Counted from the first letter of the stretch, positions 20,363 to 38,617 are shown. The stretch: 64,000 bases of DNA from a virus (IMGVR_UViG_3300042389_001027:64619-128618), one strand, 5' to 3'. The notes: generated from the letters alone by a model not told the origin. Program-made: numbers and translations.

Positions 20363-20846
20363 AAGTTTCAGTATACCCAGTTGGTCCACATCAAGCAATA
20401 GGAACATGAGACCTAATACGAGTAGTTCAATCCACGTCTTAAAGAACTTGGAAAGATGTTCTGCATCACTAACCCATTTGAAGGGGGTTCGGGGGAAACT
20501 TTACGAATTCCCAAACCGCAACAGGTCCATGCAGTGGCTGACCCTCGCAAAACCATATGGCTGAGAGTTCAGTCGGATTTCGGCGCCGAATGAATTTGTT
20601 TCCGCCACCGTCGCTCTTTGTGGAACGACAGCAACGTATGCGATAGAGACGATAGCAGCGTGAGCCCCGCCTTGCAAGCACCTTTGTGAGTCCCGCACAA
20701 CAAAAATAGACAGGTTTGTAATATAGCCGCCGACTACTCGTGGTACTCTTGACAACAGGTCGCATGCCCCCCGTGCGGCTCAAGGCGTTGCAGGCGGGAC
20801 GGGTATGTGAGAGTTCCCCGTCCCGTCTCCGCTTTTAGCGGGGCTG

Positions 20847-21326
20847 TTACCCTGCAAGTGGTAGAAGGAACAAGCGGGACTCCCACATCATTCCGATGGC
20901 TGCGTATCCAACAACATCCATAAGATTGTCTTCAATGGATTCGTTGTGCGGCTTTCCGCCACCGTCATCACTTGAGAGAAGGTTTTCAAGGCGCGCCACC
21001 TTGTCATGCATGCGAACCATCAAGCCTTGCCGCCCGAAGCGACGGATGTTCTCATGCCCGTAGTCGCGCTGCTTCCTAACGAGGGTTGCGTGCACCTGCT
21101 CAATCGTCATTGGGGTGCCGCGCTTTGCCGCCAGTTCAATAGCATCGCCGCCAATGACTGCCCACATTGCTGCCGCTTTATGGAATCCTGCTGCCGCGTG
21201 GAACAAGTCATCAATAAACCCGTCTAAATCGCTGCGTATCTGAGTGAGGTCTGCTCTTGGCTGCCTACGGACTTGAACCCAAATCCCGTCTAGTGCCCAA
21301 CGCGCTGCTTCATCCCATGTGTCCAT
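20847..21326 (-). CDS. Nucleotide-modification-associated (DUF1599-like) protein
   Basis: KQRDYG...RMHDKVARL...ESIEDNLMDVVGYA. Confidence 0.75.
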   Translation of the reverse strand: MDTWDEAARWALDGIWVQVRRQPRADLTQIRSDLDGFIDDLFHAAAGFHKAAAMWAVIGGDAIELAAKRGTPMTIEQVHATLVRKQRDYGHENIRRFGRQGLMVRMHDKVARLENLLSSDDGGGKPHNESIEDNLMDVVGYAAIGMMWESRLFLLPLAG

Positions 21327-21372
21327 AGCGCATTTTTAGCACACCGCTATACGCCACCGTCAGTACTTGAGA

Positions 21373-21681
21373 CTACTCTTCCTCAAACTTTTTTGATGCT
21401 GCGAGCAGTGCCATCTGCATAAGGTTTGACATCGCCATCGCTGCCGCTGTCGCTTCGCCGAACTCTTCCGCGTTGACTTCAATAGCCCGCGAAAACTTTT
21501 CTTCCACAAACCGTTCGTTGTATAACACAACAATATTATCTTCGGTTAACTGGATGACGACTGGTCCGTCTTCATCCATGGTTTCGGGTGGTGCCGCGAT
21601 GACTGCAACCTGCTGTCCAGTTTCGGGGTTTTCAAACCGAAACATTACCTCAGGGTCGTCGCTTCCAAAATTAATGTCCAT
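21373..21681 (-). CDS. Acidic hypothetical protein
   Basis: AGGAG RBS; 102 aa. Confidence 0.7.
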   Translation of the reverse strand: MDINFGSDDPEVMFRFENPETGQQVAVIAAPPETMDEDGPVVIQLTEDNIVVLYNERFVEEKFSRAIEVNAEEFGEATAAAMAMSNLMQMALLAASKKFEEE

Positions 21682-21728
21682 TACATATCTCCTAATAGTT
21701 AGTTTACAGCAGTGGCTTTACGCCACCG

Positions 21729-21977
21729 TCAATCATTGCGAGCGACATTATGGGTGATGTTGTATGCGCGTGCCACTGGCCACGCATCAGTCTTCTCGCA
21801 ACCTCCGTCAAAGAAATCCTTCAATGCTTCGTCTTCTCCGCACGCGGAGCAGATTTCTGTTTTGTTGTCCGCCCGCGAGAGCGCGCCGGGATATTCGCCG
21901 GGTCGTTCATTACAGGGAATCCAGTTGTCTTTACAACGTGGACAGATGTTGGGGATGTTCATGAGTTTGCCTTCCAT
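21729..21977 (-). CDS. Zn-finger hypothetical protein
   Basis: CPRC...ALSRADNKTEICSACG. Confidence 0.7.
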   Translation of the reverse strand: MEGKLMNIPNICPRCKDNWIPCNERPGEYPGALSRADNKTEICSACGEDEALKDFFDGGCEKTDAWPVARAYNITHNVARND

Positions 21978-22090
21978 TCGCAGTAGGAGTTGTAGTTTTC
22001 GTCGTTCTCTGGGTCAAGACCGTTCGCCTCGCACCAGTCTTCGTAGGTTGGTGTTGATTTAAAGATGTTCATTGTCGCTTTCCGCCACCG

Positions 22091-22381
22091 TCACTTCTTG
22101 CGAGTGTTTGTTTGGAACGCTTTCCAAACATCTACATCACTGTTTGCTGGATGATTCGCGCGCGATGCGATGATGGCTTGTGCTTCTTCGTGCCATTCTT
22201 CGTATGTCCGCGCCATGGTTGATGTCAGTTCGCCATCAGTGTAGAAGTCAAATACAACACCCTCATTAGTTACAACAAGAATCAGGATGTCCTGACCCAT
22301 GTCGTCTACGCCGTGGGGTAGTTGGATGACGATTTCTTTGCGTGCATCAAACTGACAGTTGAAATCCATACTGTCTGTCAT
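22091..22381 (-). CDS. Hypothetical protein
   Basis: GGAGG RBS; coupled. Confidence 0.7.
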   Translation of the reverse strand: MTDSMDFNCQFDARKEIVIQLPHGVDDMGQDILILVVTNEGVVFDFYTDGELTSTMARTYEEWHEEAQAIIASRANHPANSDVDVWKAFQTNTRKK

Positions 22382-22611
22382 GAGCGTTCCTCCGACTTTT
22401 CAATGACCGCATCCGCAATCCATTCACTGAGTTCGGTGCCTGCGTCTTCCCAGTCATCAAACTCTGCACAGATTTCTGCCCATGCTTCCGCTGTGAGAAC
22501 ATTCTCGTCGTCATCGTCGTAGTCGTACGACGGTTTCTCCCAGTACAACACACAGATGTCGTCGTTTGGATTTAGTTCGCCGAGTTGCTTGAGTAGTTCT
22601 GAAACTTTCAC
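22378..22611 (-). CDS. Acidic hypothetical protein
   Basis: GTGA overlap start, MKVSELLKQL. Confidence 0.7.
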   Translation of the reverse strand: MKVSELLKQLGELNPNDDICVLYWEKPSYDYDDDDENVLTAEAWAEICAEFDDWEDAGTELSEWIADAVIEKSEERS

Positions 22612-22874
22612 TTGTCTTCTGCTCCAATCAGGAAAAGGAATCCTGCTCCATTTCCTTCGGGGTCTTGTGAGGGGATAACGACGGTGCCGTCGGTAAAGAA
22701 AATCGCCATGGCGTCTGCGTCGTAGTTGTAGTCCCATGCGAACTGTTCGCATTCCGCCTTGGTGAGCGGTCGCACGAGTGCGATGGTTTTTCCTTTGAGG
22801 GAACCAAACTCACGCTCAATGTATTTGATGCGCTCGCCGTAGATTTCCTGCTCTGTCTTTAGTGCAGTGGGCAT
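22608..22874 (-). CDS. Hypothetical protein
   Basis: Strong RBS; PSQDPEGNGAG motif. Confidence 0.75.
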   Translation of the reverse strand: MPTALKTEQEIYGERIKYIEREFGSLKGKTIALVRPLTKAECEQFAWDYNYDADAMAIFFTDGTVVIPSQDPEGNGAGFLFLIGAEDK

Positions 22875-22907
22875 TACTCCTTCTTTCGTTTAGTAGATTT
22901 ACAGCAA

Positions 22908-22987
22908 GGATGGAACGGTTCCCCGACGGAACCTTTTCAGACTCTCGTATACCCACTTAGTAGCGAGCGTGTAAGTGTCTGCCATCC
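22908..22987 (-). ncRNA. Candidate structured 5' leader (three-way junction)
   Basis: GGAUGG/CCAUCC closing stem enclosing a long CAGAC/GUCUG hairpin and a GGUUCC/GGAACC hairpin, downstream of a TTGATA-17-TATACT promoter. Confidence 0.45.
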
Positions 22988-23022
22988 AGCAACAGAGAGT
23001 ATAACAACCCTCTGTGTATTTA

Positions 23023-23223
23023 TCAACTCATCTCAAAACAAAGATGTTCGTTGTTTACATCACGAGCGATGCCAGTGACCCACGCAGGATTTTCTGTTGG
23101 GTTTACGCCACCGTCACCTCTTGCAATGAGTTCAACAACTTTGTCAACTGCTTCGCCGAGCGCGCCGTTGAAATCGGTTGCATCAACATCGGTCGTGACC
23201 ATCACTGTTACGCGATACTTCAT
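23023..23223 (-). CDS. Hypothetical protein
   Basis: GGAGGTGG RBS; ATGA coupling. Confidence 0.65.
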   Translation of the reverse strand: MKYRVTVMVTTDVDATDFNGALGEAVDKVVELIARGDGGVNPTENPAWVTGIARDVNNEHLCFEMS

Positions 23224-23543
23224 ACCGCCACCTCCGCAAACTTGCTGTACTCGTTTACGAACTCTTGTGGAGTGTGAGCGAACCCTTTCTCCCATGCGGA
23301 TTCGTAGCACGCTTGAAGGAGTGCGAGTCTTGCGATTGCGAGAGAAACTGTCGGATAGTGCTCCAACCACTCGTTGGCAACGAAGTCTGTCCACCACAGG
23401 TAACCGCTGTCATCTGCGCCTTGAGAGACAACTGCTTTCATATCGTCGTTGATGATGACGCATACTTCCTTTGATATTTCAAAGTCTGTCATGTTTGGTT
23501 GATAATCGGTGTGTGCTGAGTCAATGATGTTTGTCATGTTCAT
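23220..23543 (-). CDS. Hypothetical protein
   Basis: 107 aa; coupled. Confidence 0.7.
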   Translation of the reverse strand: MNMTNIIDSAHTDYQPNMTDFEISKEVCVIINDDMKAVVSQGADDSGYLWWTDFVANEWLEHYPTVSLAIARLALLQACYESAWEKGFAHTPQEFVNEYSKFAEVAV

Positions 23544-23776
23544 CCCATTTCTTCTAGTAGTTCGTCTAATGCTTCGTAGTCAAGTGAGTCATCCAACCAT
23601 GCAACGCCGTCAGGAGTTCCTGCCGATGTGTAGACAAGATAGTTGGTTGCGAAATCTCGGTAGTTCATTTCTTTGCCGTACGCCATAACCATTTGGTAGA
23701 GCCGTTCGTCATTGGCGAGCCACAGGTTTACATTCCATGTCTCTCGGTTTTTCCAACCGTTGTAAGTCGTTTCCAT
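23540..23776 (-). CDS. Conserved phage hypothetical protein (YNGW.N.ETW family)
   Basis: YNGWKNRETWNVNLW...TPDGVAW; CTACTAGAAAGG leader. Confidence 0.8.
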   Translation of the reverse strand: METTYNGWKNRETWNVNLWLANDERLYQMVMAYGKEMNYRDFATNYLVYTSAGTPDGVAWLDDSLDYEALDELLEEMG

Positions 23777-23848
23777 TTTTACCTTTCTAGTAGATTTATC
23801 TATCAGCACCCACTTTACAGTGGGGGTGTAACACGGTTTATGCCACCG

Positions 23849-24292
23849 TCAGATGTTGCGATTGTTGTAGAGGTGGAGGAGCCACTCCATCATGTTGGAC
23901 TTGTATCCCTCCCACACGCTGTCGCCACTCATAATCCAGTCCGACAAGTCTTCCAAGTCTTGCTGAGTTGCGTCGTTCTGAATCCATTGGAGTGCTTTCC
24001 ACTCTCGGTCTTCTTCTGTGTAGATTCCGCCGTCAATGAGTGAGCCGACTTCATCTTTGATGGAGAGGGGGGAGTACGAGACTGCGTAGCGATACTTGTT
24101 GTCGCCCCACCCCGTGTCTTTGCCCATCTGCTCAATGGAGATTCCGTAACGCTTGCCGATGTCAGAGATTTCGCTGTCGCTGGCTTCGTCAAGGAGATGA
24201 TTGTCGTGGTCATCTAGGTTGTCGGTTTCTACGATGACGCATCCCTCAAGGTTGAGTACTGTGCCAGTAGTTGTGTCAATGATGAGTTTCAT
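23849..24292 (-). CDS. Hypothetical protein
   Basis: TACTAGAAAGG leader; 147 aa. Confidence 0.75.
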   Translation of the reverse strand: MKLIIDTTTGTVLNLEGCVIVETDNLDDHDNHLLDEASDSEISDIGKRYGISIEQMGKDTGWGDNKYRYAVSYSPLSIKDEVGSLIDGGIYTEEDREWKALQWIQNDATQQDLEDLSDWIMSGDSVWEGYKSNMMEWLLHLYNNRNI

Positions 24293-24351
24293 CTGTTTAC
24301 CTTTCTAGTAAGTAGGTGTTATGTAGAGTGTAATACACTCACAGCGTCCTG

Positions 24352-24654
24352 TCAACTCGCAACAGGATTTTTCGTATAAATAAACTCATACGGTTCGCAG
24401 AGGTCAATCGCCCACTCCTCGTGAGCAATGCCCCACACATCTCGGGATTCACTGATTGCCTTCATGAGACTCTCAAGTTCCTCACGGTTCATGTGGTAGT
24501 AGTACTCCTCAAAGAACTCGTTCTGGTCATCGGGGTTCCAAGTGTCGCCGTCAAACACGAGGGTGACTTCCTGAAGGGAGTCGCGCCCATCGTCGTGGTA
24601 GTAGATGGCGCACTCAAGTGTGAGTCCGTTTACTTCGGGGATTGTGATGGTCAT
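24352..24654 (-). CDS. Acidic hypothetical protein
   Basis: CTACTAGAAAGG leader. Confidence 0.75.
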   Translation of the reverse strand: MTITIPEVNGLTLECAIYYHDDGRDSLQEVTLVFDGDTWNPDDQNEFFEEYYYHMNREELESLMKAISESRDVWGIAHEEWAIDLCEPYEFIYTKNPVAS

Positions 24655-24715
24655 GTCGGTTACCTTTCTAGTAGTTGATGGAAGTATAACAGGTGGGTGT
24701 AACACACACAACTAT

Positions 24716-24871
24716 TTACTTCTCATTCTCTATAACGACGGGAGTCTCCTGAAGTGTGCGCATTTCTGCGAGCATTTCTAAAATCTCTGCGCTCTGTCGT
24801 TGTATGTCTGCGATGAGGGCGAGAGCCTTTGCTCTCTCCTCGGATGTCATGAGGTCGGGGTTGAAGGTCAT
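24716..24871 (-). CDS. Small coiled-coil hypothetical protein
   Basis: ATGA coupling; AAGGAG RBS. Confidence 0.6.
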   Translation of the reverse strand: MTFNPDLMTSEERAKALALIADIQRQSAEILEMLAEMRTLQETPVVIENEK

Positions 24872-25140
24872 ACAGACTCCTTCTGTTCCACGACTGACCA
24901 ACCGATGGGTTCGCACCGCCATGTCACTCCATCTACTTCTACTTCGTCACGCACGGACAGTGCGGTATGTGTGCGGTTCTCGGGGAGGTGCGGTTCTAGC
25001 GCATCCCACAGTGACCCGTTATATAGGTTGGTGTCACGGAACGCACGCTCAACGATGTCGTGACCTTCAGTGTTCTCCCACTCAAAAGTGGCTGAAGTCG
25101 GGTCGCCGAACGCTTTCCATGTGATGGTGATTGTTGCCAT
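24868..25140 (-). CDS. Hypothetical protein (YodL-like C-terminus)
   Basis: HTALSVRDEVEVDG..W.CEPIGW. Confidence 0.7.
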   Translation of the reverse strand: MATITITWKAFGDPTSATFEWENTEGHDIVERAFRDTNLYNGSLWDALEPHLPENRTHTALSVRDEVEVDGVTWRCEPIGWSVVEQKESV

Positions 25141-25173
25141 GTTTTTTCCTTTCGTTTAGTACTTACGAATACA

Positions 25174-25202
25174 ACTATACACGAGGGGTGTAACATTGTC
25201 AA
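25174..25202 (-). promoter_or_regulatory. Sigma70-type promoter with TGTTACACCCC spacer motif
   Basis: TTGACA-17-TATAGT. Confidence 0.85.
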
Positions 25203-25421
25203 CCTTTATTCAGAAAAGTTTAAAAGAATCTTTGGCGGAGAAAACTCATACAGATTTATGTAAAGAGTTCTTCCCAGTTACGCAAAACCCCCAAACCATT
25301 TACGCCCCCGCAAGCCCCGCAGCAAAAGCGTGCGCATCAGCCCCGCAGCGCACATTCATGTGCGGGACTCCCAGAAAAAGTCAAGAAATGTTCCCAGAGT
25401 TACGACATGGCGGGGCTGTGG

Positions 25422-25435
25422 CGAACTAATGTTCG
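25422..25435. promoter_or_regulatory. LexA (SOS) box overlapping the -10 of the HA-HTH gene
   Basis: CGAAC-TAAT-GTTCG. Confidence 0.75.
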
Positions 25436-25440
25436 GTTTC

Positions 25441-25836
25441 ATGAAACCCAATCGCATTGACAATGCCACTCGCTGGCAACTCCACCTAACAGCACTACAA
25501 CAGTTCGTTACCCGAACTGGCTCTGCCCGTGTTCCGTCCACACACACTGAGGTCGTGGAAGGTCGCAATGTTGCCCTTGGCGCATGGGTCGGGTACATGA
25601 GACAGCGCAATCGTGCTGGGTTGTTGTCCTCGGAGCGTAAGCAAACCCTTGAGGCAATCTCGGGCTGGGCTTGGGGACCGCTTCGCCCTGGCCCTGCGAC
25701 CAATACGGAACGAGATGAAAACATTGTCGTCCTTCGCTCACAAGGTCTGAGCCTTGAGACAATCGCAAGCAAGTTCGGTATCTCTCGTCAGCGAGTTCAT
25801 CAAATCGCTCGTTCACACACCAACGCCAATGCCTGA
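25441..25836 (+). CDS. Helicase-associated (HA) domain plus sigma-region-4-like HTH regulator
   Basis: W...L..L..F....G..RVP...LG.WV..MR...L..ER...L...GW.W; GLSLETIASKFGISRQRVHQI. Confidence 0.85.
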   Translation: MKPNRIDNATRWQLHLTALQQFVTRTGSARVPSTHTEVVEGRNVALGAWVGYMRQRNRAGLLSSERKQTLEAISGWAWGPLRPGPATNTERDENIVVLRSQGLSLETIASKFGISRQRVHQIARSHTNANA

Positions 25837-26122
25837 ACACGACCCAAGTAAGTGGAGAATGGTTGACCCCAACTGGCGTATCCCAGTTGATGAGTCTGAA
25901 GTCTTTACTCCCTTGGAGCAGAACCGAGTTCCGATTAGCGGTCTTGTGCTCAAGATGTTGTGGGGGTTTATCACATTCGTTGGTCTTGTTGGTGCTGGGG
26001 TGTTTGGTATCGCTAATCTTGCTGGCGCAGAACAAATCGGTCTACTGGATTCTTATGGAATCTCACTGATTCTGATTCTGCTCCGCGCTTTGGATAAAAC
26101 GACATTCGGGAAACAATCCTAA
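25829..26122 (+). CDS. Small 2-TM membrane protein
   Basis: Two hydrophobic segments. Confidence 0.65.
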   Translation: MPEHDPSKWRMVDPNWRIPVDESEVFTPLEQNRVPISGLVLKMLWGFITFVGLVGAGVFGIANLAGAEQIGLLDSYGISLILILLRALDKTTFGKQS

Positions 26123-26160
26123 AAACAAAACAACCCCTCAGGCTTTCGCCATTGGGGTTG
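26121..26160 (-). terminator. Intrinsic terminator
   Basis: CAACCCC...GGGGTTG stem with a U-tract on the minus strand. Confidence 0.8.
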
Positions 26161-26165
26161 CTTCG

Positions 26166-26205
26166 GAGCAGTTGAGGGTGAAAGGAGTAAAGTTCCTCAC
26201 TTCTC
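26166..26205 (-). ncRNA. 3'-UTR hairpin with anti-Shine-Dalgarno loop (candidate sRNA)
   Basis: UGAGG/CCUCA stem with loop AACUUUACUCCUUUCAC, directly followed by the terminator. Confidence 0.5.
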
Positions 26206-26244
26206 TATTTGGTCGTACGCCGACTATTCGTCGTACCAGCAGGG

Positions 26245-27735
26245 TCAGAGGTTGCCCCCCTGAACCCGTCGCCATGTTTGCTTCCAACAGTTTGGATACC
26301 ACATGGCTGGTTTGATTCCTGACTTCAGTTGCTCAAGAGCCTTGATTCCTTCTTGTACATTCACACGAACGATTACCTTTTCTTTGCGAACCTGCTTGAT
26401 ACAGTCCATTGCGAGAAAGTCCTCGTAACCGTGGTTGATTCCATGAACAAGTCCGTCCGTGATGAACACGACTGGTGCGTTCTTGTGTTGCTTCTGCTTG
26501 ATTGCCCAACGCAGAGCCTCACCGTCAACACCGTTGCCACCGCTACGCTCGGGAACTGCGTCAACCATACGACCCTTTTCCGCAAGAATGAACAAGTTGT
26601 CCTTCTTGTTTTGTGAGTCTGTGGAATAAACCGCAACCGTTGCGCCGGGAGCCTGCTCCATGATTTTCACAAGGTCTGCCGTGGAGAGTCGCATAGAGCC
26701 TGAACCGTCAATGATGACGACTCCACCGTTGCCCTTCTTGCTTGCGTCAAAGATACGACGCTCAGGGTCAATCAACATTCGCCCGATACGACGAGGGTTG
26801 CGTCCCATGTCGGTTGCCCGACGCTTGCGACCCAATCCACCTTGTGCGTGACGAGTGAGTGGGAGTTTGCGAACCTTGAGTTCTGCCCAAGAGACCGCAC
26901 GACCACCTTCGCTCGCAGGATTGATTTCCTTGAGTTTGGTTTTGTCAACCTTTGGCTTCGCAGGTTGCTTGTCTGCTTTGCCAATCTTGTTTGGTTGAGT
27001 TTCGCCGTTTGCTTCTGGCTTTCCGCCACCGTCATCACTTGACTGACCTTCTTGACCTTCCTCACCTTCGTCGTTCTCGTCCTCGGGTGGGTTGGCGATT
27101 CGGTCAATCATCTCTGCGATTACTTCGGTGTGGGTGAATCCCAACGGTGCGAGACCGCTTTTTGCGTCAACCGCCGTGCTTGCGAGAGTCCGACGCTTGT
27201 CTGCCTTCGCAATCAGTTTCTCAACCTTCTTGGCAATGTCTCGGAGTGCGTTCGCCCATTCGGGATTTTCCCTGCGGATTCCCGTGATGAATGGCTTGAG
27301 TCCTGCGGAGTTGGAGAATCCAACGACCGTGTAGACCGCACTTGTCCAATCGCCTTGCTTGGCGATTCGTACGCCTGCCTCAAGTTCAGACCCGTCGCTG
27401 AGGTGAGTGAGAACATCAAACCCTGCCTTCTGAGCAAGGAAGTTCACTCGGGATTCCTCAACTGCTCGCAGAGCGATTTCACTCGCAATGTTTCGCTGAA
27501 TCCATGCTGAGAAGTCGTGCGCTGGTGAGACCTTTGCGTGAACCATCTCGTGAGCCCGAATACAACGCTCAGTCTCTCCGTCATTTACGGGGACGACCAT
27601 CACCTTGTCAACAATGTTGGTGTGAGGGAGTCCTCGGACTGGAGCACATGGGTCAACGACCCACGCCCCAATCTCTGTGTCCCTGCGCCCCAACATCTCG
27701 GGCATGGGTTGGTTGTTCATTGTCGCAGTCATCAC
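26245..27735 (-). CDS. HEXXH metallopeptidase-like plus VWA (CobT-like) protein
   Basis: AHEMVH, acidic linker, IDGSGSM MIDAS motif, FITDG. Confidence 0.85.
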   Translation of the reverse strand: MMTATMNNQPMPEMLGRRDTEIGAWVVDPCAPVRGLPHTNIVDKVMVVPVNDGETERCIRAHEMVHAKVSPAHDFSAWIQRNIASEIALRAVEESRVNFLAQKAGFDVLTHLSDGSELEAGVRIAKQGDWTSAVYTVVGFSNSAGLKPFITGIRRENPEWANALRDIAKKVEKLIAKADKRRTLASTAVDAKSGLAPLGFTHTEVIAEMIDRIANPPEDENDEGEEGQEGQSSDDGGGKPEANGETQPNKIGKADKQPAKPKVDKTKLKEINPASEGGRAVSWAELKVRKLPLTRHAQGGLGRKRRATDMGRNPRRIGRMLIDPERRIFDASKKGNGGVVIIDGSGSMRLSTADLVKIMEQAPGATVAVYSTDSQNKKDNLFILAEKGRMVDAVPERSGGNGVDGEALRWAIKQKQHKNAPVVFITDGLVHGINHGYEDFLAMDCIKQVRKEKVIVRVNVQEGIKALEQLKSGIKPAMWYPNCWKQTWRRVQGGNL

Positions 27736-29635: not shown

Positions 29636-29809
29636 CTTGGACACCATAAATACATACGCATACACATGAACGCACGGCTATACGCCACCGTCGCTACTTG
29701 TAAGCACACACACAAGCACACGCTCGCGCGCGCGTAAGCCCCGTGGGCGCATCACCAGATGCGGGACTCCCCATGCCCGCTTCCGCAGCGGGGCTCGTGG
29801 GGAAGATGG

Positions 29810-31049: not shown

Positions 31050-31565
31050 TCAGTACCAACAAATGAGCCCGTCTGCGTGTTCCGCCGCCCACTTGAGATA
31101 CCACGACGCATACTTGAGGTCTGCCGTGATGTCCTCTCCGCCCATGCGGTAAACACCATCTTCCTCGTCGCACTCGTCAAACGCCTCGTCAATGACTTGG
31201 GCAAGAGTGAGACAAGAGCCCTTTGACTTCTCTGTCCCATCTTCGCTATCGCCATAGAACGAGAAGTCATCACTATCGCCGTATCCGATTGCTTCCAAGA
31301 GGTAGTTGCCGTACTTGCCTCTGTACCAACAGTCAGTACCGAACATTCCATAGACAGGACTGCCGAGTGCTTCCTTGTCTTGCTTATTCAGTTCATTGAC
31401 ATACGGGCAACCGCCACACGCTTGCGTAGCCTGACAGTCAATGACCATCATGGTTGAGCCGTCATCTTCCGTGAGTGCCACGCCGTCTTTGTTGAGTCGT
31501 GGAGTCATCACTACAGTTCCCTGAGCCTTACAGGGGTACTGCTTCGGAATGTTGTCTAGTCCCAT
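31050..31565 (-). CDS. Hypothetical protein (MGLD-start family)
   Basis: GAAAGGA RBS and upstream promoter. Confidence 0.75.
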   Translation of the reverse strand: MGLDNIPKQYPCKAQGTVVMTPRLNKDGVALTEDDGSTMMVIDCQATQACGGCPYVNELNKQDKEALGSPVYGMFGTDCWYRGKYGNYLLEAIGYGDSDDFSFYGDSEDGTEKSKGSCLTLAQVIDEAFDECDEEDGVYRMGGEDITADLKYASWYLKWAAEHADGLICWY

Positions 31566-31596
31566 CACTTTCCTTTCGTTTAGGTTTATACAGCAC

Positions 31597-31625
31597 AGTA
31601 TAACAAGGGGGTGTCATACTGTCAA
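31597..31625 (-). promoter_or_regulatory. Sigma70-type promoter with ACACCCC spacer motif
   Basis: TTGACA-17-TATACT. Confidence 0.85.
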
Positions 31626-31632
31626 ACTCTGC

Positions 31633-31944
31633 TCAGATTGCGAACAGAGCCCTCAGGTAGTCAGGTGCGTCGTGGTTCTCGCCGTCATACACGCCCTCAG
31701 GGGAGAACGCACCAACGACGACGACATTCCCGACAAGGTGACGCTGAAACAAGATGCTCGCCGTGAGGTTCGCCTCAAGTCCCCAAATCAAACCCTCGTC
31801 ATTGACATAGCCAACGAAGTCGTCTGCCCGAACGCAGTCAATGTAGCCACCGACTGACTCTTGGAGAAACCTGAGCGAGTCTTGCTCAGGAATGTCCACA
31901 ACCTTCGGGCGGTCATCTGTCGGGATAAGGATTGCCTTTGTCAT
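31633..31944 (-). CDS. DUF3846-like protein
   Basis: LQESVGGYID.V.....YVNDEG....L..N..A...LVG.VV. Confidence 0.85.
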   Translation of the reverse strand: MTKAILIPTDDRPKVVDIPEQDSLRFLQESVGGYIDCVRADDFVGYVNDEGLIWGLEANLTASILFQRHLVGNVVVVGAFSPEGVYDGENHDAPDYLRALFAI

Positions 31945-31979
31945 GTTTGTACCTTTCTAGTAGTTACAGCGTGAGTAGG

Positions 31980-32378
31980 TCACGCCACCTTTGCGGTAGC
32001 GTCACCTTCCTCAACATTGTCATTCAGGTCATACACACGGAACTGCGTGTATGGGGTGGACTTGGTGACCGCTTCTGCGACATCTGCCTTGATGAGTCCA
32101 AGTTCTACTGCCGACTGAAACTTCTTACCGTCAATCTCGGTCTTAGTGACCTTCTTGAGCGTCGCACCGTTCACCAACTCGGTGAGGGTCTTGAGGTTGT
32201 ATGAGCGACGGTTAGCCGTGATGAGCATGACCTTTTCGTTGCCCACAATGACGGACTCCGTGCCGTTCTTGGCAAGGGCTTCCTTCAGGATTTCCTCTGC
32301 CTGCGCCTTTGCCTGCTTTGCGACTTCCAATGCTCGCTCTGCCTCAAGGAACATCTGACCTGCTTGTAATGTATTCAT
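31980..32378 (-). CDS. Hypothetical protein
   Basis: 132 aa; AAGGAG RBS. Confidence 0.8.
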   Translation of the reverse strand: MNTLQAGQMFLEAERALEVAKQAKAQAEEILKEALAKNGTESVIVGNEKVMLITANRRSYNLKTLTELVNGATLKKVTKTEIDGKKFQSAVELGLIKADVAEAVTKSTPYTQFRVYDLNDNVEEGDATAKVA

Positions 32379-32828
32379 TTCGCTACTCCTTTTAGTAGTT
32401 AGGTTTATGTGATTGAGTTTATCAGAGGGGTGTTACTTTCGCAACCTTTATTTCTGACTCACTCGGTATTTCTTATTTCCCACTTTATCAGAGGGGTGTA
32501 ACACAGTTCCCTGTAGCCCTCACCATCTATAACGAATGGCGAACCTCAAAGTGTGCGCTCATCTTATCTAGGGGGTGTGACACGGTTATCCGTACACACA
32601 TAGAACGAACAGAGCCAGCCAAAGTGTGCGCTCAATCCTAAATAAATCTTTCCAGCATCTCAACCCCCGCTTTCGGCTACCGTCGCTACTTGTAGCGCAT
32701 CTGGCATAACGCTGTGCGTTATACACGCACCAGCCCCGCATAACGCGTCGCGTTATACGCACGAGCCCCGCATCAGAAGATGCGCAGCGGGGCTTCTGGC
32801 AACTTTGTGGGAAAGTGGGAAAGTGGGC

Positions 32829-32864
32829 AAAAGAAAAACCCCCGCCCGTTTCTGAGCGAGGGTT
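32829..32864 (-). terminator. Intrinsic terminator
   Basis: GC stem with an A-tract on the plus strand. Confidence 0.75.
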
Positions 32865-32888
32865 CTTCGGTTGGATTTGTCGGGAATG

Positions 32889-33257
32889 TCACGACGGGGT
32901 GACGGTCATGCTTCCGCCAGTTGGTGCGTCGTGGTGATAAAGAACGCACTTGAGTGAGTCGCCCTCAACTGTGTATCGGAGTCGCCACTCGGTTCTGTCG
33001 GGAGTGATTGCCCGCAAAAGTTCTTCGGGAGTCCGTGCGGAGAATGTTCCGTCAATCGTTCCGTACCACACGGGGAAACCCGTAATGCGGAAACCCTGAT
33101 TGTGTTCCACGAACAATGCTTCGGTATCAAAACCGAACTGCTCTACTTGGTCACTCCAACAATCTCCCCAACATTCGGGGGCTTCATTCCACTCGCCCGC
33201 ATCTTCGTCAAAAGTTACACACGCACAAGTGTTTTGTATCTCGGTCATTGTTTCCAT
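32889..33257 (-). CDS. Hypothetical protein
   Basis: TACTAGAAAGGA leader; HHDAPTG motif. Confidence 0.75.
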   Translation of the reverse strand: METMTEIQNTCACVTFDEDAGEWNEAPECWGDCWSDQVEQFGFDTEALFVEHNQGFRITGFPVWYGTIDGTFSARTPEELLRAITPDRTEWRLRYTVEGDSLKCVLYHHDAPTGGSMTVTPS

Positions 33258-33292
33258 GATTGTCCTTTCTAGTAATGACAGCGGGGGAGTCG

Positions 33293-33745
33293 TCAGACTC
33301 CGATACCCGCATGACGCTTCGCTTCTTCCCATGTGTGACACGCAAGGTGCTTCAGGGTCTCTGTGTTGTTCTCGCCACTCTCAACCGTGTACACGCTCAC
33401 GCCGTTCCTGCGCATGACATAGACGAACTGCGCCCATGAGTATGCGCCAGTTTCTTCCGTGTACCACGCTTCGTCGGAGTCCTTGTCAATGTCGTCGTGA
33501 ACAATGCCGTAGCCGACACGAATGTTCTTCTCATCTCTGAACTCGTCGGTGTCGCCTTGCTCGTGGTCAATAACTGACCATGACGCATTGTCGTTGATGA
33601 GTGTCGTGACTACTTGTGTAATCCCGTCACGCTCTACAAGTGCGCCGAGTACGCCAACCATTCGTTCAGGGTAGTTATCCCAATGAGCGTAACGCCCACG
33701 CCAACCCTGCGCCCGTTCTACTGCGATGATTGCTCTAGTTGCCAT
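33293..33745 (-). CDS. Conserved phage hypothetical protein (MATR...Y.HWD.YP family)
   Basis: MATRAII...YAHWDNYPE..G..L. Confidence 0.8.
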   Translation of the reverse strand: MATRAIIAVERAQGWRGRYAHWDNYPERMVGVLGALVERDGITQVVTTLINDNASWSVIDHEQGDTDEFRDEKNIRVGYGIVHDDIDKDSDEAWYTEETGAYSWAQFVYVMRRNGVSVYTVESGENNTETLKHLACHTWEEAKRHAGIGV

Positions 33746-33819
33746 TGTGTTTATTCCTTTTCTCTAGTAGGTATTGCCCATGATACACACGGGGTGTGAC
33801 ACGGTACAGCGACGCAAGG

Positions 33820-33972
33820 TCATGGGTTCCAACGAAACCCACGACACTCACGCTTGTTGCTGACACGCTTCTTGTTCGGTATGCGTTGCGCTTTCAGAAT
33901 GTTCCTGTCTGCGAACGCCTGTCGGTCTTGGTCACTCCAACCACGACTAGGGCTAGGTCTATTAGTTGCCAT
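33820..33972 (-). CDS. Small basic hypothetical protein
   Basis: 50 aa, R/K-rich; AAGGA RBS. Confidence 0.55.
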   Translation of the reverse strand: MATNRPSPSRGWSDQDRQAFADRNILKAQRIPNKKRVSNKRECRGFRWNP

Positions 33973-33974
33973 GT

Positions 33975-34421
33975 TCAGTTTCCTTCCGTATCCATGATGT
34001 GGCGAGTCTCGCCGTGACATTTGTGGGTTGTCTTGCGAACACACTCCGCCATGCTCTGCGAGTCAATGACGAACTTCTTGTTACACTCGTGGCACTTCGC
34101 CGTGTATGAACGCTGACCCTTTGCCCATTGGTATGGGTGGATTGGCGTGTAGCCCTTGAGTCGCTCGTCAGGGAAACAAGTGATTGCTTCGTCACACTTC
34201 ACACACACGACAACCTTGACCATGTAGGTGACTCCGCCGAACACGATGGGCTCAATGTTGGAGTAACCCTTTTTGTTGTATCCGCACTTGGTACAGATAC
34301 GGTCATGGTTGGTCATGTCTGCCGAAAGTGTGGACACTTCCTTGTTGGCGATTTTCTGAACTACAGCAACTGGAATGTTTTTGTTGTTCGCTTGCTTTAC
34401 GATGTGGGCGGTGAGTTTCAT
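33975..34421 (-). CDS. DUF4258-like protein with Zn ribbons (paralogue 1)
   Basis: MKLTAHI..QA....IP; three CxxC pairs. Confidence 0.7.
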   Translation of the reverse strand: MKLTAHIVKQANNKNIPVAVVQKIANKEVSTLSADMTNHDRICTKCGYNKKGYSNIEPIVFGGVTYMVKVVVCVKCDEAITCFPDERLKGYTPIHPYQWAKGQRSYTAKCHECNKKFVIDSQSMAECVRKTTHKCHGETRHIMDTEGN

Positions 34422-34585
34422 TTCTTTTTACCTTTCTAGTAAGTTGTAATCACTCTATCACTACGGTGTAACACTAGCAACCTTATCGGATAGATTTATT
34501 TATTTATTTTGTCTTGTACTTTCTATAACGAACGGTGACATGAAAAGTGTGCGCCACTACTGAAAGTTTTTCAGAAAGATTTTTC

Positions 34586-34613
34586 CGAACAAATGTTCCC
34601 GAACAAGTGTTCG
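34586..34613. promoter_or_regulatory. Two tandem LexA boxes
   Basis: CGAACAAATGTTCC and CGAACAAGTGTTCG. Confidence 0.75.
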
Positions 34614-34667
34614 CACGGGCTTTCGGCTACCGTCGCTACTTGTAGAGACTTCCGATAAACTCGTCGC

Positions 34668-34874
34668 ATGATTGTTACTTGTGAGTTCTGCGGATTTCAG
34701 ATTGACACGGGCAGACACGCCCACTCGGTGAAAGTAACGGGCTGGGTAAAGACGAAACAAGGCAAACCTGGCACCACCATTACACGGGCATCAGCCCCGA
34801 TGGGTTATGCGTGCCAGACCTGTCTGGAGTCCCGCGACGGGCGCGGCGATGCGGGGCTCGCGACGCTCTTCTGA
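34668..34874 (+). CDS. Small Zn-finger protein (leaderless)
   Basis: CEFCG...ACQTC; TAAACT-N6-ATG. Confidence 0.6.
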   Translation: MIVTCEFCGFQIDTGRHAHSVKVTGWVKTKQGKPGTTITRASAPMGYACQTCLESRDGRGDAGLATLF

Positions 34875-34896
34875 TGCGGGCATAAACGCGGGCATC

Positions 34897-34926
34897 AAAA
34901 AACCCGCCCCCAACGCGGAGGGCGGG
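34897..34926 (-). terminator. Intrinsic terminator
   Basis: CCCGCCC/GGGCGGG stem plus A6. Confidence 0.8.
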
Positions 34927-34947
34927 CTGATTGAGTTCTTCGCGGAA

Positions 34948-35148
34948 TCAGAGTTGTTCGGAAACTGTACGAATCTGAATGAATCTGAAGTGCTTACGGA
35001 ACTTATTGGCTTTGGCTTCTGCTTGAGCCTTGCCGTGAACTCCGTCAAAGATGACCCACTCGCATGGGAGGAGTCCGAACTCTCCCGAGAACTCGGGGTC
35101 ATCTCTCGTGATGGCTGTATGAGCCAAGACTATGTATGTCGGGTACAT
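34948..35148 (-). CDS. Hypothetical protein
   Basis: CTACTAGAAAGGA leader. Confidence 0.7.
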   Translation of the reverse strand: MYPTYIVLAHTAITRDDPEFSGEFGLLPCEWVIFDGVHGKAQAEAKANKFRKHFRFIQIRTVSEQL

Positions 35149-35333
35149 ATCTATCCTTTCTAGTAGTTGCTTATCACTATAACGAAAGGGTGTTACATAG
35201 TTGTGCGCTAACCGCCAAACTTTTTCTTTTCTTTTGAGCGCACACTTTTGACCACTCTTATCGTTACTGTATTACACCCCTTAGTTATAGTGGTGAGTAT
35301 TCCAGTAACTACTAGAAAGAAAGGAAAAACCAA

Positions 35334-35504
35334 ATGAGTCAGAAAGTCACCTCAATCCGAGTCTCGGAACAAAAGAGTGAAACCAACGGCGGAGTTGTTT
35401 ACTTCGTCACTTGGAACAACGGAACGACAATCCGTATGGAACTCGCACCTGACATGGCAGAACATCTGTCATGGCACTACGGCGTAGCAATCACCGCCCG
35501 CTAA
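35334..35504 (+). CDS. Small hypothetical protein (56 aa, not in the ORF track)
   Basis: CTACTAGAAAGAAAGGA leader; MSQKVTSIRV...ITAR; followed by a terminator. Confidence 0.75.
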   Translation: MSQKVTSIRVSEQKSETNGGVVYFVTWNNGTTIRMELAPDMAEHLSWHYGVAITAR

Positions 35505-35533
35505 TCCAGCCAAATCTCAACCGACTAGCAGAG

Positions 35534-35572
35534 AGCCCTCTCCCCAGAAATGGGGCGGGGGCTTTTTGTTTT
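35534..35572 (+). terminator. Intrinsic terminator
   Basis: AGCCCTCTCCCC...GGGGCGGGGGCT plus T-tract. Confidence 0.8.
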
Positions 35573-35753
35573 CCCCGCTATACGCCACCGTCGCTACTTG
35601 CTGTTAGCGAAAACGCTAACACTTTCCCAGAAGATGAGCGCACGAGTCCCGTGGGTCGGCGGCGCGGCGGGGCTACTGGGTTGATGTCGCTGGTTCTGGG
35701 CGGATTCATTTCTGGTTTCGGGCAAAAAAAAATCCACAACCCGCATCTTGGGC

Positions 35754-35875
35754 TGTGGATAATGTTGTGGATAAAGTTATTCACAGGCTGTGGATTTCGT
35801 TGTGGAAATCGCTTGCTTGCCTGTGGATACCCGTACAGCACTTATCCACAGGAGACACCTGCCCCCTGTGGATAA
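35754..35875. promoter_or_regulatory. DnaA-box cluster (4 perfect, about 4 degenerate)
   Basis: TGTGGATAA at 35754, 35766, 35867; TTATCCACA at 35842; TTATTCACA at 35777. Confidence 0.8.
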
Positions 35876-35893
35876 AACCAAACTCCCGAGAGT

Positions 35894-36172
35894 TCAGTCC
35901 TCGCACTCGCAATCTTCGTGAGCCTCGTAGCACCAACCGCACTCGTCGCTGTAGTCGCTGTCCTCGTCGCTTCCGAAGTCAATCCTGACCCACTTGGCGA
36001 TGGTGGCGAGAACATTGTCGTAGTCGCCTGAGGTGGCTTCCTGACGGAACTCGCTGATGATGTCACGGGCAACGCCCGACCGCCTGAGAGCGTCGCTCAC
36101 AGAGCCGATGAGAGAAAACGCATTCCCATCTACCCCAATGAGGTTCACTCCGATGTTCGGATACTTGACCAT
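35894..36172 (-). CDS. Conserved phage hypothetical protein
   Basis: V.L.G.DGNAFS.IG.V..ALRR.G...EA.SGDYD..L. Confidence 0.8.
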   Translation of the reverse strand: MVKYPNIGVNLIGVDGNAFSLIGSVSDALRRSGVARDIISEFRQEATSGDYDNVLATIAKWVRIDFGSDEDSDYSDECGWCYEAHEDCECED

Positions 36173-36382
36173 TACCTATCTCCTTTTCTATTTCTAGTAG
36201 TTGCCTTCATTGTACTGAAGGGGTGTGGCAGAGTTATTTCACCCTCCCGAGAGTTCGCTTCTCCATTGCCGATTCTCACGCCGACGCAAGAGACCGTTGT
36301 GGGTCTTTCGCCCGTGACGCTTCAGGGTGCGACAACACCCGTACGGGCATTGCCTCTCTGCTCGCTTGTTGTGGAGCATTGC

Positions 36383-36829
36383 TCACTTCTCCTTCATGAT
36401 GTGTCGGGTCTTGCCCTTACAGGTGTGCGTAGTGTCTCGCTTACATTGTGCCAAGTCCATTGACTGAATCATGAACCTACGACCGCAATCGTGACACTTA
36501 GCCGAGTACGACCGCATGCCCTTATCCCATTGGTCTCTACGAATGGGTGTATTGCCCTCTAGGGCTTCGTCTGCGTAGACCGTGATGGCTTCGTCGCACT
36601 TGACGCATACAACGACCTTCACGCCGTATTCCTTGCCCTGAAACACAATGGGCGAGTAGGTGCGCCACTCTTGCTTGATAGCACCGCACCAACGGCAACG
36701 GCAGTCTCGCTTCGTGATGTCCTGCTGTGCCTTGTGAATGCCGACCTGCTGGAGAACGACCTTCTCCACTACGGGAATCGGGATTCGCTTCTGTTCGGCT
36801 TGGTTCTTGATGTGCTGTGTCATTCGCAT
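36383..36829 (-). CDS. DUF4258-like protein with Zn ribbons (paralogue 2)
   Basis: Aligns over its length with 33975-34421 (VKVVVCVKCDEAIT identical). Confidence 0.75.
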   Translation of the reverse strand: MRMTQHIKNQAEQKRIPIPVVEKVVLQQVGIHKAQQDITKRDCRCRWCGAIKQEWRTYSPIVFQGKEYGVKVVVCVKCDEAITVYADEALEGNTPIRRDQWDKGMRSYSAKCHDCGRRFMIQSMDLAQCKRDTTHTCKGKTRHIMKEK

Positions 36830-36935
36830 TTGCTTACTCCTTCTAGTAGGTATGCCCTCACTATAACGGAGGGGTGTAATACATAAACGTATCGGAGGCA
36901 CAAAAGTGTGCGTGTCATTCGTCACATCTCTTGAC

Positions 36936-37020
36936 AGAACAAGTGTTCGCCTCCCCGACCGAACGAGTGTTCGCCGAACGAGTGTTCCCCGAACAGGTGT
37001 TCGTACCGAACAAGTGTTCG
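36936..37020. promoter_or_regulatory. Array of five LexA boxes
   Basis: GAAC-N4-GTTC at 36936, 36960, 36975, 36990, 37007. Confidence 0.85.
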
Positions 37021-37061
37021 CCCGTGAGACAAAGAGACCCAAAGTGTCTCACCGTCTCGCC

Positions 37062-37184
37062 TGTGGATAAACCTGTGGAAAACTATGTTGCTGACTACAA
37101 GTAAGTTATCCACACCCTGTGGAAAACCTTATCCCCACCCTGTGGACAAACTTATCCACACGCTGTGAATAAACCTGTGGAAAA
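37062..37184. promoter_or_regulatory. Array of about nine DnaA boxes
   Basis: Perfect boxes at 37062, 37106, 37152; TTWTNCACA or 1-mismatch boxes at 37074, 37118, 37129, 37141, 37164, 37176. Confidence 0.85.
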
Positions 37185-37358
37185 CTTTTCCGCCAAAAAA
37201 CTTGACAAACCAAAAACTTTATGCGAATCCGAAACTAGAAACCAGATGCCCGCCCCGTAGCCCCGTGTGCTACGCGCTGGCATAGCAGTCCCGTGGGTGT
37301 AAACCCCGTGCGGGGCTCGTGAGGTGAGTGGTCGCCCAACTCGTGGATTCGGGGAATA

Positions 37359-37398
37359 AAAAATGGGTCGCCACCCCGTATGTAGGGAAACGACCCAT
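37359..37398 (-). terminator. Intrinsic terminator
   Basis: ATGGGTCG...CGACCCAT stem plus A-tract. Confidence 0.7.
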
Positions 37399-37417
37399 GA
37401 AGGTAACCCGAAGAATC

Positions 37418-37639
37418 TCAGTCAATCAGGAACTCAGGGCGAGCGAGGGCAAGGGCTTCGCCAATCTCAATCGCCGTAAATGCCTGAGGGTTATCCAAGT
37501 CTCTGACCGTCACGAAGTTAGCCCCAACTGTCGGGTCATTGGCTATCTCCGCAAGGTTGCCGTACGCCTGACAGACCGCATCTAAGTGGGATTCGCAATC
37601 CTCGTAGACCATCTCCCAAGTCACTATGTACCTAGCCAT
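37418..37639 (-). CDS. Hypothetical protein
   Basis: AGGAG RBS. Confidence 0.7.
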   Translation of the reverse strand: MARYIVTWEMVYEDCESHLDAVCQAYGNLAEIANDPTVGANFVTVRDLDNPQAFTAIEIGEALALARPEFLID

Positions 37640-37750
37640 TTGTGTTGTCTCCTATCTGCCCCTGAGGGCGGTTGTAAGGGGCTGGAAAGCCCAAAGCCCC
37701 CGTGTCACCCAATGAGGCAACACGGAGGCGTATGTGAGGCGTGGAAGGGC

Positions 37751-38266
37751 TTACGCCAACTTCCTCGCACACACTGGTCCGATACCCCGTGCGACTGATT
37801 CGGGGTCGTTCAGGAATCGCCCGCAGATGACGCAGTGACCGCACTCGTGTCCGAGCGCACCTGCCTGCTCAACGGTGAGCGCAACAATCGCACCCGTGCT
37901 GATTCGGTTGGCGAGGGTGACCATACCGCCACGCTCAAATGTCCACGAAGTGGCGAGAGCCTGCTTGGTCATTGCGTAGGTGTGTCCACCGCCGTTACGG
38001 GCAGGGCGCACGAACCATACGGTTGAGTGAGCCGATTCCCAGTAGAACCCAACGGGGGGAACTGGCAACGCCTGAGCACCATTGCGTTGGACTTGGCGAG
38101 CCTGAGCCTTGTTGCGCATGGAAACCGCAGAGCGAATCTGAGCCTCCGTGAGCGTACGGTGACGACGGTAATACTTGGCGAGATTCTGAGCGAAGTCAGA
38201 CCAAGTCTGATTGCCGAGCCAAACTGCGAGGTCTGCTACCTCGGAAGCGTCTAGTTGAGTGGACAT
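37751..38266 (-). CDS. DUF6011-like Zn-finger protein
   Basis: C-terminal CVICGRFLNDPESVARGIGPVCARK. Confidence 0.85.
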   Translation of the reverse strand: MSTQLDASEVADLAVWLGNQTWSDFAQNLAKYYRRHRTLTEAQIRSAVSMRNKAQARQVQRNGAQALPVPPVGFYWESAHSTVWFVRPARNGGGHTYAMTKQALATSWTFERGGMVTLANRISTGAIVALTVEQAGALGHECGHCVICGRFLNDPESVARGIGPVCARKLA

Positions 38267-38305
38267 TGCAACCCCTTTCATGGGTCTAGTAGGTTTACGA
38301 AATCA

Positions 38306-38334
38306 ACTATACAACGGGGGTGTTACATAGTCAA
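38306..38334 (-). promoter_or_regulatory. Sigma70-type promoter with ACACCCC spacer motif
   Basis: TTGACT-17-TATAGT. Confidence 0.8.
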
Positions 38335-38617
38335 GGATTATCTGAAAAAAGTGTAAATAAACTTCGCCAGACATTTGCCAGCCCAACCCAACCGCTGTCC
38401 CAAACCGAACTCACCAAACCCCCACAGCCCCCGCTTTCCGCCACCGTCGCCCTTGTAGCGCAATCCCACACGCACCACCCGCAGGGGCGCACGCACCCCC
38501 ATAGCCCCGCAGCGGCGCATAACGCGACACGTTACGTCACAGCCCCGCTTGACAGAGTCGGCGGCGGGACTCGCGGGGTCGGGCGAGCAGAATCTTGGTC
38601 AAAATCTTGGGTAAAGA

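Follow-up and report, generated by a model that had tools for sequence, protein, structure and literature searches.

Dispersed words that keep to one strand are known in a few phages, as nick sites, stoperators and polymerase promoters. The nick sites of tf all lie on the top strand (14 of 14) despite two convergent transcription units, with 11 of the 14 in one half of the genome and at positions similar among relatives; the phiKMV nick consensus, CGAC-N5-CCTA/CTCCGG, is bipartite with a 5-bp spacer; and the sites of T5 and tf are spread unevenly along the genome and, as far as that study describes them, are not limited to one region (PMC3517423). The same source presents the biological role of these sites as still unsettled after decades (PMC3517423), and our search of the literature found nothing relevant on newer T5 nicking work. 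Stoperators, as portrayed in PMC9283540, have an orientation that follows transcription, and their reversal abolishes function. Here we analyse a 24-bp polar motif in the last 64 kb (IMGVR_UViG_3300042389_001027:64619-128618; hereafter the window) of a 128,618-bp IMG/VR virus record, the whole of which we designate G000. Other polar words come from bacterial chromosomes, where Ter is about 23 bp long, similar to the motif, and Chi and KOPS are 5-8 nt long and abundant. The promoters of T7-type phage polymerases are long, asymmetric and co-oriented words, and the PeSL promoter/stem-loop cassettes of T4-type phages are short conserved modules at the joints of early-gene cassettes, which include a promoter and turn with the genes. 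What appears to distinguish the present motif among dispersed polar phage words, judging from the genomes compared below, is that its polarity outlasts inversion of the surrounding genes.

The consensus GCTWTMCGCCACCGTCRNNNYTTG occurs six times exactly, and 13 times at up to three mismatches, on the + strand of the window between 20597 and 38456 (Table 1; all coordinates are window positions except where marked G000), and 100 dinucleotide-preserving shuffles of the sequence gave no match. An earlier note on this DNA had reported 13 copies in one orientation, and both the copies and their positions are borne out. The whole record likewise holds 13 copies on the + strand and 0 on the - strand at the same threshold, with none elsewhere; a single extra match at four mismatches is at chance level (mean of 0.2 in 20 mononucleotide shuffles), and the 8-mer core is rare outside the full motif in this genome. 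By codon-usage scoring, nearly all genes of the arm at 19.3-38.8 kb lie on the - strand, so that in mRNA sense the motif reads CAAG-NNN-yGACGGTGGCG-kAwAGC (the CAAG form, as opposed to the GCT form of the + strand). The logo of 99 distinct copies, [G/C]CT[T/A]T[C/A]CGCCACCGT(C)-N5-TT(G), describes a long, bipartite and asymmetric word, in which positions 5, 9, 11, 12, 14 and 15 are invariant and the TT at +22/23 carries 1.0-1.2 bits, though it was not used in selecting the copies. Two variants are specific to lineages: L185 and the G011 group have CCACCACCGT, and L172 has CCTCCACCGT.

Whereas 11 of the 13 window copies lie outside called genes, several of them abutting stop codons, the copies at 20951 and 27018 stand within two different open reading frames (ORFs). 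As the earlier note had pointed out, these two share 26 identical letters, and both are translated as S-S-D-D-G-G-G-K-P in the frame of their own ORF. A single frame, (D/N)GGGK, is in fact used throughout by the in-gene copies, in the DUF1599-like gene, the 496-aa gene and the AAA_25 gene. The three TGA stop codons that had been placed inside the motif are also present (copies 21715, 22077 and 23835). The earlier proposal of a directional signal is supported: the motif is a strictly directional, selected one, conserved in related phages and retained within genes in a single harmless frame. The two gene names fared less well: DUF1599-like stands weakly for ORF 20847-21326 (Pfam E 7.6e-4, 20.2 bits, below the 25-bit curated cut-off), whereas a VWA label for the 496-aa ORF 26245-27735 is unsupported, with 0 Pfam families at E<=0.5.

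Scanning IMG/VR with the 17 fixed bases of the motif returned 25 stretches in 20 contigs. In whole records of the relatives, counted with the 16-bp core at up to two mismatches, the copies on one strand and the other number 8/0 in G001, 6/0 in G003, 9/0 in G004, 11/0 in G005, 12/0 in G006, 3/0 in G007, 7/0 in G008, 9/0 in G009 and 2/0 in G010. Together with the 13 copies of G000, 80 out of 80 copies in ten records, nine of them from other uncultured phages, are therefore co-oriented within their own record, and reversed-pattern controls gave 0 matches. G002, with 1+1 matches, is an unrelated phage sharing one 41-aa match and so serves as a chance control only; G013-G015 have one copy each and no say on orientation. 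Of 41 loci anchored on the helicase, 13 carry 31 copies on the helicase-sense strand and 2 carry 6 copies on the other strand, the remaining 26 having no copy within the stretch covered. The helicases of motif-bearing phages are only 54-74% identical, and the core is still conserved.

No cultured phage in a collection of 50,697 records has the motif: a megablast of the arm against these records gave no match, and a 36-base query that includes the motif had no more than 3 matches in cultured phages, all weak and partial. In 596 Gb of sequence from 185,579 bacterial and archaeal species genomes the 17-base pattern was found in 112 stretches, about the number expected by chance, with a single match in each of the best 80 of the 112; the word therefore belongs to the phage group and not to a host chromosome. 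In the searched literature, 10-mers of the motif occurred, among the matches listed, only in primer-type listings, and nothing relevant was found on a transcription-independent one-strand phage motif, so that no printed description of the present word came to light there.

The relatives also reveal what the polarity does not follow. In four relatives (G004, G005, G008 and G009) the DUF1599-like, 496-aa and AAA_5 genes of the lower arm keep, relative to the motif, the strand that they have in G000; a 10-25-kb upper block beside the helicase is transcribed the opposite way, and the motif is not turned. Homologues of window genes 29810-30061 (69% identity), 30373-30612, 31633-31944, 31980-32378 and 35894-36172 in the upper blocks of G004 and G005 are on the other strand when the conserved lower arm and helicase are taken as reference, with the motif strand unchanged. 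At the end of the DUF4314 gene, for example, the motif follows the stop codon by 109 nt in CAAG form in G000, and abuts the stop of the homologue in GCT form in G005. Such flipped blocks around an unflipped motif amount to a natural experiment that parts genome polarity from transcription polarity. The 102 copies in 18 genome pieces, a set in which some loci overlap in the same records, include 27 intergenic ones whose neighbouring genes read the CAAG form, 38 intergenic ones whose neighbours read the GCT form and 16 with mixed flanks; 12 and 5 copies are inside genes reading the CAAG and the GCT form, respectively, and 4 are of unclear class; 85 of the 102 are outside called genes, mostly at operon ends beside terminator-like hairpins and promoters. 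Collectively, these comparisons argue for a motif polarity that would be a property of the DNA and not of the direction in which genes are read. The link to leftward transcription drawn in the earlier note is not supported, since the upper-arm homologues of the four relatives are flipped and the motif strand is kept. A motif that stays unflipped among flipped genes speaks against a stoperator, a nut/put element or a promoter, and for a DNA-level polar site. By comparison, a ribosome-binding site (RBS) leader of similar size, TACTAGAAAGG (12 copies), turns with the gene strand in the same genome; because inverted repeats that short are evidently tolerated, the fixed strand of the motif looks functional and is unlikely to be a mere by-product.

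With respect to the replication genes, on the other hand, the motif has a consistent direction. The G-rich form, 5'-CAAs-N4-GACGGTGGCGkAwAGs-3', runs away from the helicase/DUF932/SSB block in every marker-bearing piece, with 96 copies pointing away from DUF932/SSB and one weak 2-mismatch in-gene match pointing toward it, overlapping loci being counted repeatedly; this bias mostly reflects conserved synteny, and the informative cases are few. The direction is not tied to the strand of the helicase gene itself (L176). In the G011/G012 lineage (6 contigs with AAA_25 proteins 89-100% identical), a copy just past the helicase stop and a copy beyond DUF932/SSB, inside the AAA_25 primase/helicase-like gene in the NGGGK frame, point in opposite directions. 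Both contig ends of G011 (L026 and L007) carry a 123-bp inverted repeat, a duplicate of a promoter-bearing spacer, the first base of which is the first base of the motif. The terminal far-side copy of G011 may be a passenger of this duplication, and the replication block may invert between the two 123-bp copies.

PolA, Pol III alpha and integrases of the families PF00589 and PF00239 were not found in the 128.6-kb genome (controls positive, for the integrases in 14 and 13 of 14 genomes, respectively; PolB not searched). DnaA-box-like 9-mers (TTWTCCACA) number 15 in the whole genome, 12 of them clustered in the upper arm (29615-29635, 35754-35875 and 37062-37184), and also occur in the upper blocks of G005 and G009 (L143-L145, L149-L150). 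Many upper-block genes of the relatives are preceded by paired boxes, about 45-51 nt ahead of the start codon and mostly of one orientation, which may belong to early promoters or act as a DnaA sink. A perfect 16-bp TGTTTCACGTGAAACA, which we take to be the canonical chromosomal parS, occurs once each in G004 (C1:32649, L146) and G008 (C1:26826, L151); it is not in the present genome, which has an ORF with a ParB_N domain (59156-59974). The lack of PolA and Pol III alpha, the DnaA-like boxes and the parS of relatives suggest use of host chromosome machinery.

We consider the motif to be probably a DNA-level polar site of some kind. In the explanation that we favour, a dedicated sequence-specific protein, probably phage-encoded, would read the motif on DNA and not on transcripts; the polarity of the sites would be fixed relative to the genome, the G-rich form leading away from the helicase/DUF932/SSB block in whichever direction the genes are read; and strand-specific nicking or processing might take place at the sites, as it does in T5, phiKMV-like phages and tf. 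This statement as a whole is tentative and falls well short of an even chance, and nicking or processing in particular, which we infer by analogy, is offered as a possibility and not as an expectation. The analogy is broad: the nick sites of T5/BF23, phiKMV-like and tf/LUZ24-like phages are also asymmetric one-strand words (of 7-19 bp), with a strand rule free of transcription, uneven spread, similar placement in relatives and variation between lineages, and the phiKMV word matches the bipartite build of the motif with its N5 (PMC3517423). The motif differs in being longer (24 bp), in lying in the early region only, in occurring on both strands in one lineage and in being known here from sequence alone; moreover, the nick-site phages infect Proteobacteria, whereas the hosts of the motif phages are probably Actinobacteria.

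Several points weigh against this explanation. No nickase was identified, the only candidates being an HNH-like ORF (62359-62811; 20.1 bits, below the Pfam cut-off of 21.4) and the ParB_N ORF mentioned above, neither of which has a link to the motif. The lineage of G011 and G012 carries copies on both strands (2+2 and 1+1), unlike sites of the T5/tf type as far as these have been described. On the long contigs G003, G004 and G005 the arrays are found in the early region and the helicase flank only, and none elsewhere. The gene calls of the relatives, made by codon-usage scoring, are backed by homology for part of the genes only, and the public sequencing runs are available as assembled contigs, in which neither DNA nor RNA ends are visible. 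As for the reader, the helix-turn-helix (HTH) and ribbon-helix-helix proteins that the earlier note put forward were not confirmed: the matches are weak, with a TacA1-like ORF at 19376-19543 (E 0.02) and a Sigma70_r4_2-like HTH in ORF 63010-63651 (E 1.6e-5, below the cut-off). Together with the ParB_N and HNH-like ORFs, an 82-aa zinc-ribbon-like ORF and WhiB, the latter HTH ORF is a candidate for the protein acting at the site.

A wider view, rather speculative in our estimate, is that the motif could be a viral counterpart of chromosome-architecture sites, that is, a word through which a dedicated protein would steer or gate a replisome, translocase or repair nuclease, possibly via programmed nicks, and whose arrow away from the replication module would survive repeated inversion and replacement of gene cassettes. 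Such a view would suit a phage without its own main DNA polymerase that borrows signals of the host chromosome, namely DnaA boxes and, in relatives, parS. Ranked next after nicking is a replication-oriented polar site of the Ter, KOPS or architecture-imparting class: a tightly bound protein, or a word that orients a translocase, would be kept in the orientation that agrees with, and lets through, forks departing from an origin in the helicase/DUF932/SSB block, and machines coming the other way may be blocked or steered. This is unlikely, although it deserves serious consideration: the arrow away from DUF932/SSB, its freedom from the helicase gene strand, the opposed copies on either side of DUF932/SSB in one lineage and the apparent use of host machinery are all in its favour, and Tus-Ter, Chi and KOPS are themselves non-palindromic and oriented relative to replication and not to genes. 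Fork barriers of the Tus-Ter and RTP kind are, like the motif, asymmetric sites of about 20-30 bp. However, the two-sided copies are confined to that lineage and one of the two far-side copies is a possible passenger; no origin was located, with neither iterons nor an AT-rich dip at 38-50 kb, and the GC and AT skews follow gene strand and not fork direction; the Tus family PF05472 was not found in the genome (E. coli control positive; RTP not searched); and we know of no phage precedent. The Ter/Chi-type site of the earlier note thus stands as a class of DNA site but not as Chi itself, which is made unlikely by a signal that takes up the entire 16-24-bp word and is repeated in no bacterial genome scanned (only single matches to the 17-base pattern in the best 80 of 112 stretches); a shorter host word is possible. 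A further, improbable alternative makes the motif the boundary of exchangeable early-gene cassettes at operon joints, recombination between direct copies swapping or deleting cassettes and inverted copies being lost, or else a plain binding site whose co-orientation is a by-product. The position of most copies at operon ends is what this would predict, and the gene content between copies is highly mosaic, with about 5-6 upper-block genes common to G000 and G005; the phage has a Rad52/22-family annealing protein and an exonuclease, and the inverted repeat of G011 begins exactly with the motif. Yet a perfect core of 16 bp is short for homologous exchange, the RBS leader of similar length is tolerated both ways, in-gene copies at conserved positions are not cassette joints, and the invariant core across phages with such divergent helicases is left without account. 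PeSL cassettes are comparable as short modules at variable early-cassette joints, but the motif does not turn with the genes.

Explanations that tie the motif to transcription fare worse. Its length, asymmetry and co-orientation would fit a promoter that serves a phage RNA polymerase or sigma-like factor so far unrecognised and that fires one way along the whole early region, in sense here and partly antisense in relatives, and T7-type promoters are indeed conserved asymmetric words of about 20-24 bp, co-oriented and mostly intergenic. A - strand gene lies downstream of every window copy, 4 to about 475 nt away, and four large ORFs without family in the head module could conceal an enzyme. Nevertheless, this is quite improbable, as either firing direction leaves about 40-50% of the family's copies antisense, the orientation of the motif not following the genes in relatives, and no polymerase gene was detected, the 110 ORFs covered by Pfam scans showing no polymerase domain. 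The four large ORFs match no Pfam or PHROG family and lack a DxD[GA]D motif, and the Atlas look-alikes of two of them (scores of 0.81 and 0.90) are uninformative and include no polymerase. Sigma70_r2 (PF04542) was not found, with controls positive in 11 of 14 genomes, nor was RNA_pol (PF00940), a weak result given that its control was positive nowhere. The arm also has sigma-70-like promoters of its own, the seven best promoter-like sites all being on the - strand, although such sites are not above shuffles in total (15 vs 13.6). Least probable of all, and very much so, are two of the analogies offered by the earlier note, in which the leftward arm would carry a stoperator-like roadblock or a nut/put-like antitermination element for host RNA polymerase. 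Like the stoperators of Cluster A phages (L5 gp71-type), the motif is a dispersed asymmetric site of a presumed actinobacterial phage with many copies, often in short intergenic gaps beside stop codons (compare PMC9283540), and reading by a monomer with two DNA-binding parts is plausible for it. What speaks against the stoperator analogy is the orientation, which in relatives is independent of transcription, whereas stoperators are defined in PMC9283540 by an orientation that follows it. No integrase of either kind was found; a search for the L5 gp71 repressor gave no match, an empty answer that is itself weak. A nut/put RNA element is unlikely for the same reason of orientation, since in half of the family the transcripts would carry the complement, and the arm has 13 copies and not one or two near promoters. 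No common RNA structure was seen either: no consistent hairpin was found adjoining the motif, and the folds of 7 copies with 10-nt flanks have z from -2.86 to +0.81 and differ from copy to copy. Presumably, the L5 stoperator consensus also contains GGTGGC and CAAG.

If the favoured explanation is right and the sites are nicked, or if they act as polar locks, widespread uncultured phages of freshwater actinobacteria would offer many variants for decoding such signals, and the 24-bp site with its reader might be of use as an orientation-dependent tool. Were the motif an ordinary binding site, it would still be a useful marker of the early region of this phage group.

Table 1. The 13 copies of the motif in the window and their surroundings. 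Upstream, before and after are given in mRNA sense where so marked.
Position	Strand	Mismatches	Location	Associated features
20597..20620	+	2 (TGTTTCCGCCACCGTCGCTCTTTG)	Between the DUF1599-like gene and ORF 19964-20407; inside a low-scoring ORF only	
20951..20974	+	0 (exact)	Inside DUF1599-like ORF 20847-21326 (- strand), read ..SSDDGGGKP..	Position kept in relatives L022, L013 and G005
21346..21369	+	0 (exact)	Short gap between ORFs 21373-21681 and 20847-21326	TAG stop of ORF 21373-21681 4 nt before (mRNA sense); start of ORF 20847-21326 20 nt after
21715..21738	+	1	Its TGA is the stop of ORF 21729-21977	Next start (21681) 34 nt downstream
22077..22100	+	0 (exact)	Its TGA is the stop of ORF 22091-22381	
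23100..23123	+	1	Gap between ORFs 23220-23543 and 22608-22874	About 75 nt upstream (mRNA sense) of promoter-like TTGATA-N17-TATACT
23835..23858	+	3	Its TGA is the stop of ORF 23849-24292	Directly followed by TGTTACACCC element and conserved RBS leader
27018..27041	+	0 (exact)	Inside 496-aa ORF 26245-27735 (- strand), acidic/glycine linker, read ..SSDDGGGKP..	
29677..29700	+	0 (exact)	Long intergenic region	109 nt past stop of DUF4314 gene (29810-30061, - strand), 120 nt before start of ORF 28646-29557; two DnaA-box-like 9-mers come next
32669..32692	+	2 (GCTTTCGGCTACCGTC...)	Long intergenic region	Upstream (mRNA sense) of repeated GAGCGCACACTTT / TGTWACACCC promoter-region elements
34619..34642	+	2	Long intergenic region	198 nt before start of ORF 33975-34421
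35577..35600	+	0 (exact)	Long intergenic region	73 nt past stop of + strand ORF 35334-35504; cluster of DnaA-box-like 9-mers at 35754-35875
38433..38456	+	2	Closest copy to the helicase gene	99 nt upstream (mRNA sense) of TTGACT-N17-TATAGT (38334-38306); downstream of terminator-like hairpin (38642-38621)

The first five copies (20597-22100) follow one another at 354, 395, 369 and 362 bp, each interval holding a single small gene. The sequences flanking the five long-intergenic copies give a poor alignment, with a mean column identity of 55%, and an Rfam scan (E<=1) of window positions 19000-40000 gave one chance-level match, unrelated to the motif. The word TGTWACACCC is a conserved element of promoter regions, often standing between TTGACA-like and TATAGT-like hexamers, and a conserved 5' leader with ribosome site, AACTACTAGAAAGGTAA, has its 12 copies at 23782-38843, 41585, 42289 and 54299. 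The genes of the arm are small and most are without assigned function; the gene adjoining the 496-aa ORF encodes an AAA_5 (MoxR-like) ATPase.

The record is that of a tailed phage, with genes for a portal, a protease, an HK97-type capsid, a large terminase, an SNF2 helicase and an SSB, besides the Rad52-like annealing protein and the exonuclease already named, a class II ribonucleotide reductase and ThyX. The phage appears to be strictly lytic. A "direct terminal repeat" in the record is a 127-bp assembly overlap and no guide to the physical ends, and the AAA_25 primase/helicase-like gene seems to span the ends of the record. A WhiB gene (18731-19054), an Rpf-like transglycosylase and the ribosome-binding leader ACTAGAAAGG point to actinobacteria; the closest cultured capsids are those of Gordonia phages, at 48-50% identity, and the public runs with the arm are lake, river and other freshwater metagenomes. 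Thus, the host is probably a freshwater actinobacterium, although a host search with the CoA-transferase gene in genome contigs found no relative.

Transcripts of the arm are represented in the public data. Six riverine metatranscriptomes contain 31-40% of the arm's sampled words, and in four runs available as contigs only, in which ends and strand are not readable, coverage extends to arm genes but not to the intergenic copies. In three of these four runs single RNA contigs run across the in-gene copy at 27018, which is therefore not a transcript block; the contigs of run X19 end at 26848 and resume at 27037, a gap near this copy on which we place no interpretation. In RNA contigs of X18 and X19, 154 bases at 30219-30372, in ORF 30004-30354, are swapped for 26 other letters, which looks like a population variant of that ORF.

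Outside the arm, the four large ORFs of the head module (970, 907, 738 and 798 aa) lie on the - strand at G000 15649-26618 (L001, L005, L002), between the prohead protease and the capsid. The phage also carries cargo that is odd for a phage, comprising a tryptophan halogenase (E 2e-103), a CoA-transferase of family III (E 2e-93), a proteasome-subunit-like ORF and an ORF with a histone-deacetylase domain, at window positions 4959-6449, 57683-58870 and 18092-18721 and at G000 6235-7101. Two tRNA genes, for Ile (anticodon TAT) and Pro (anticodon TGG), are located at 41953-42027 and 56737-56811.

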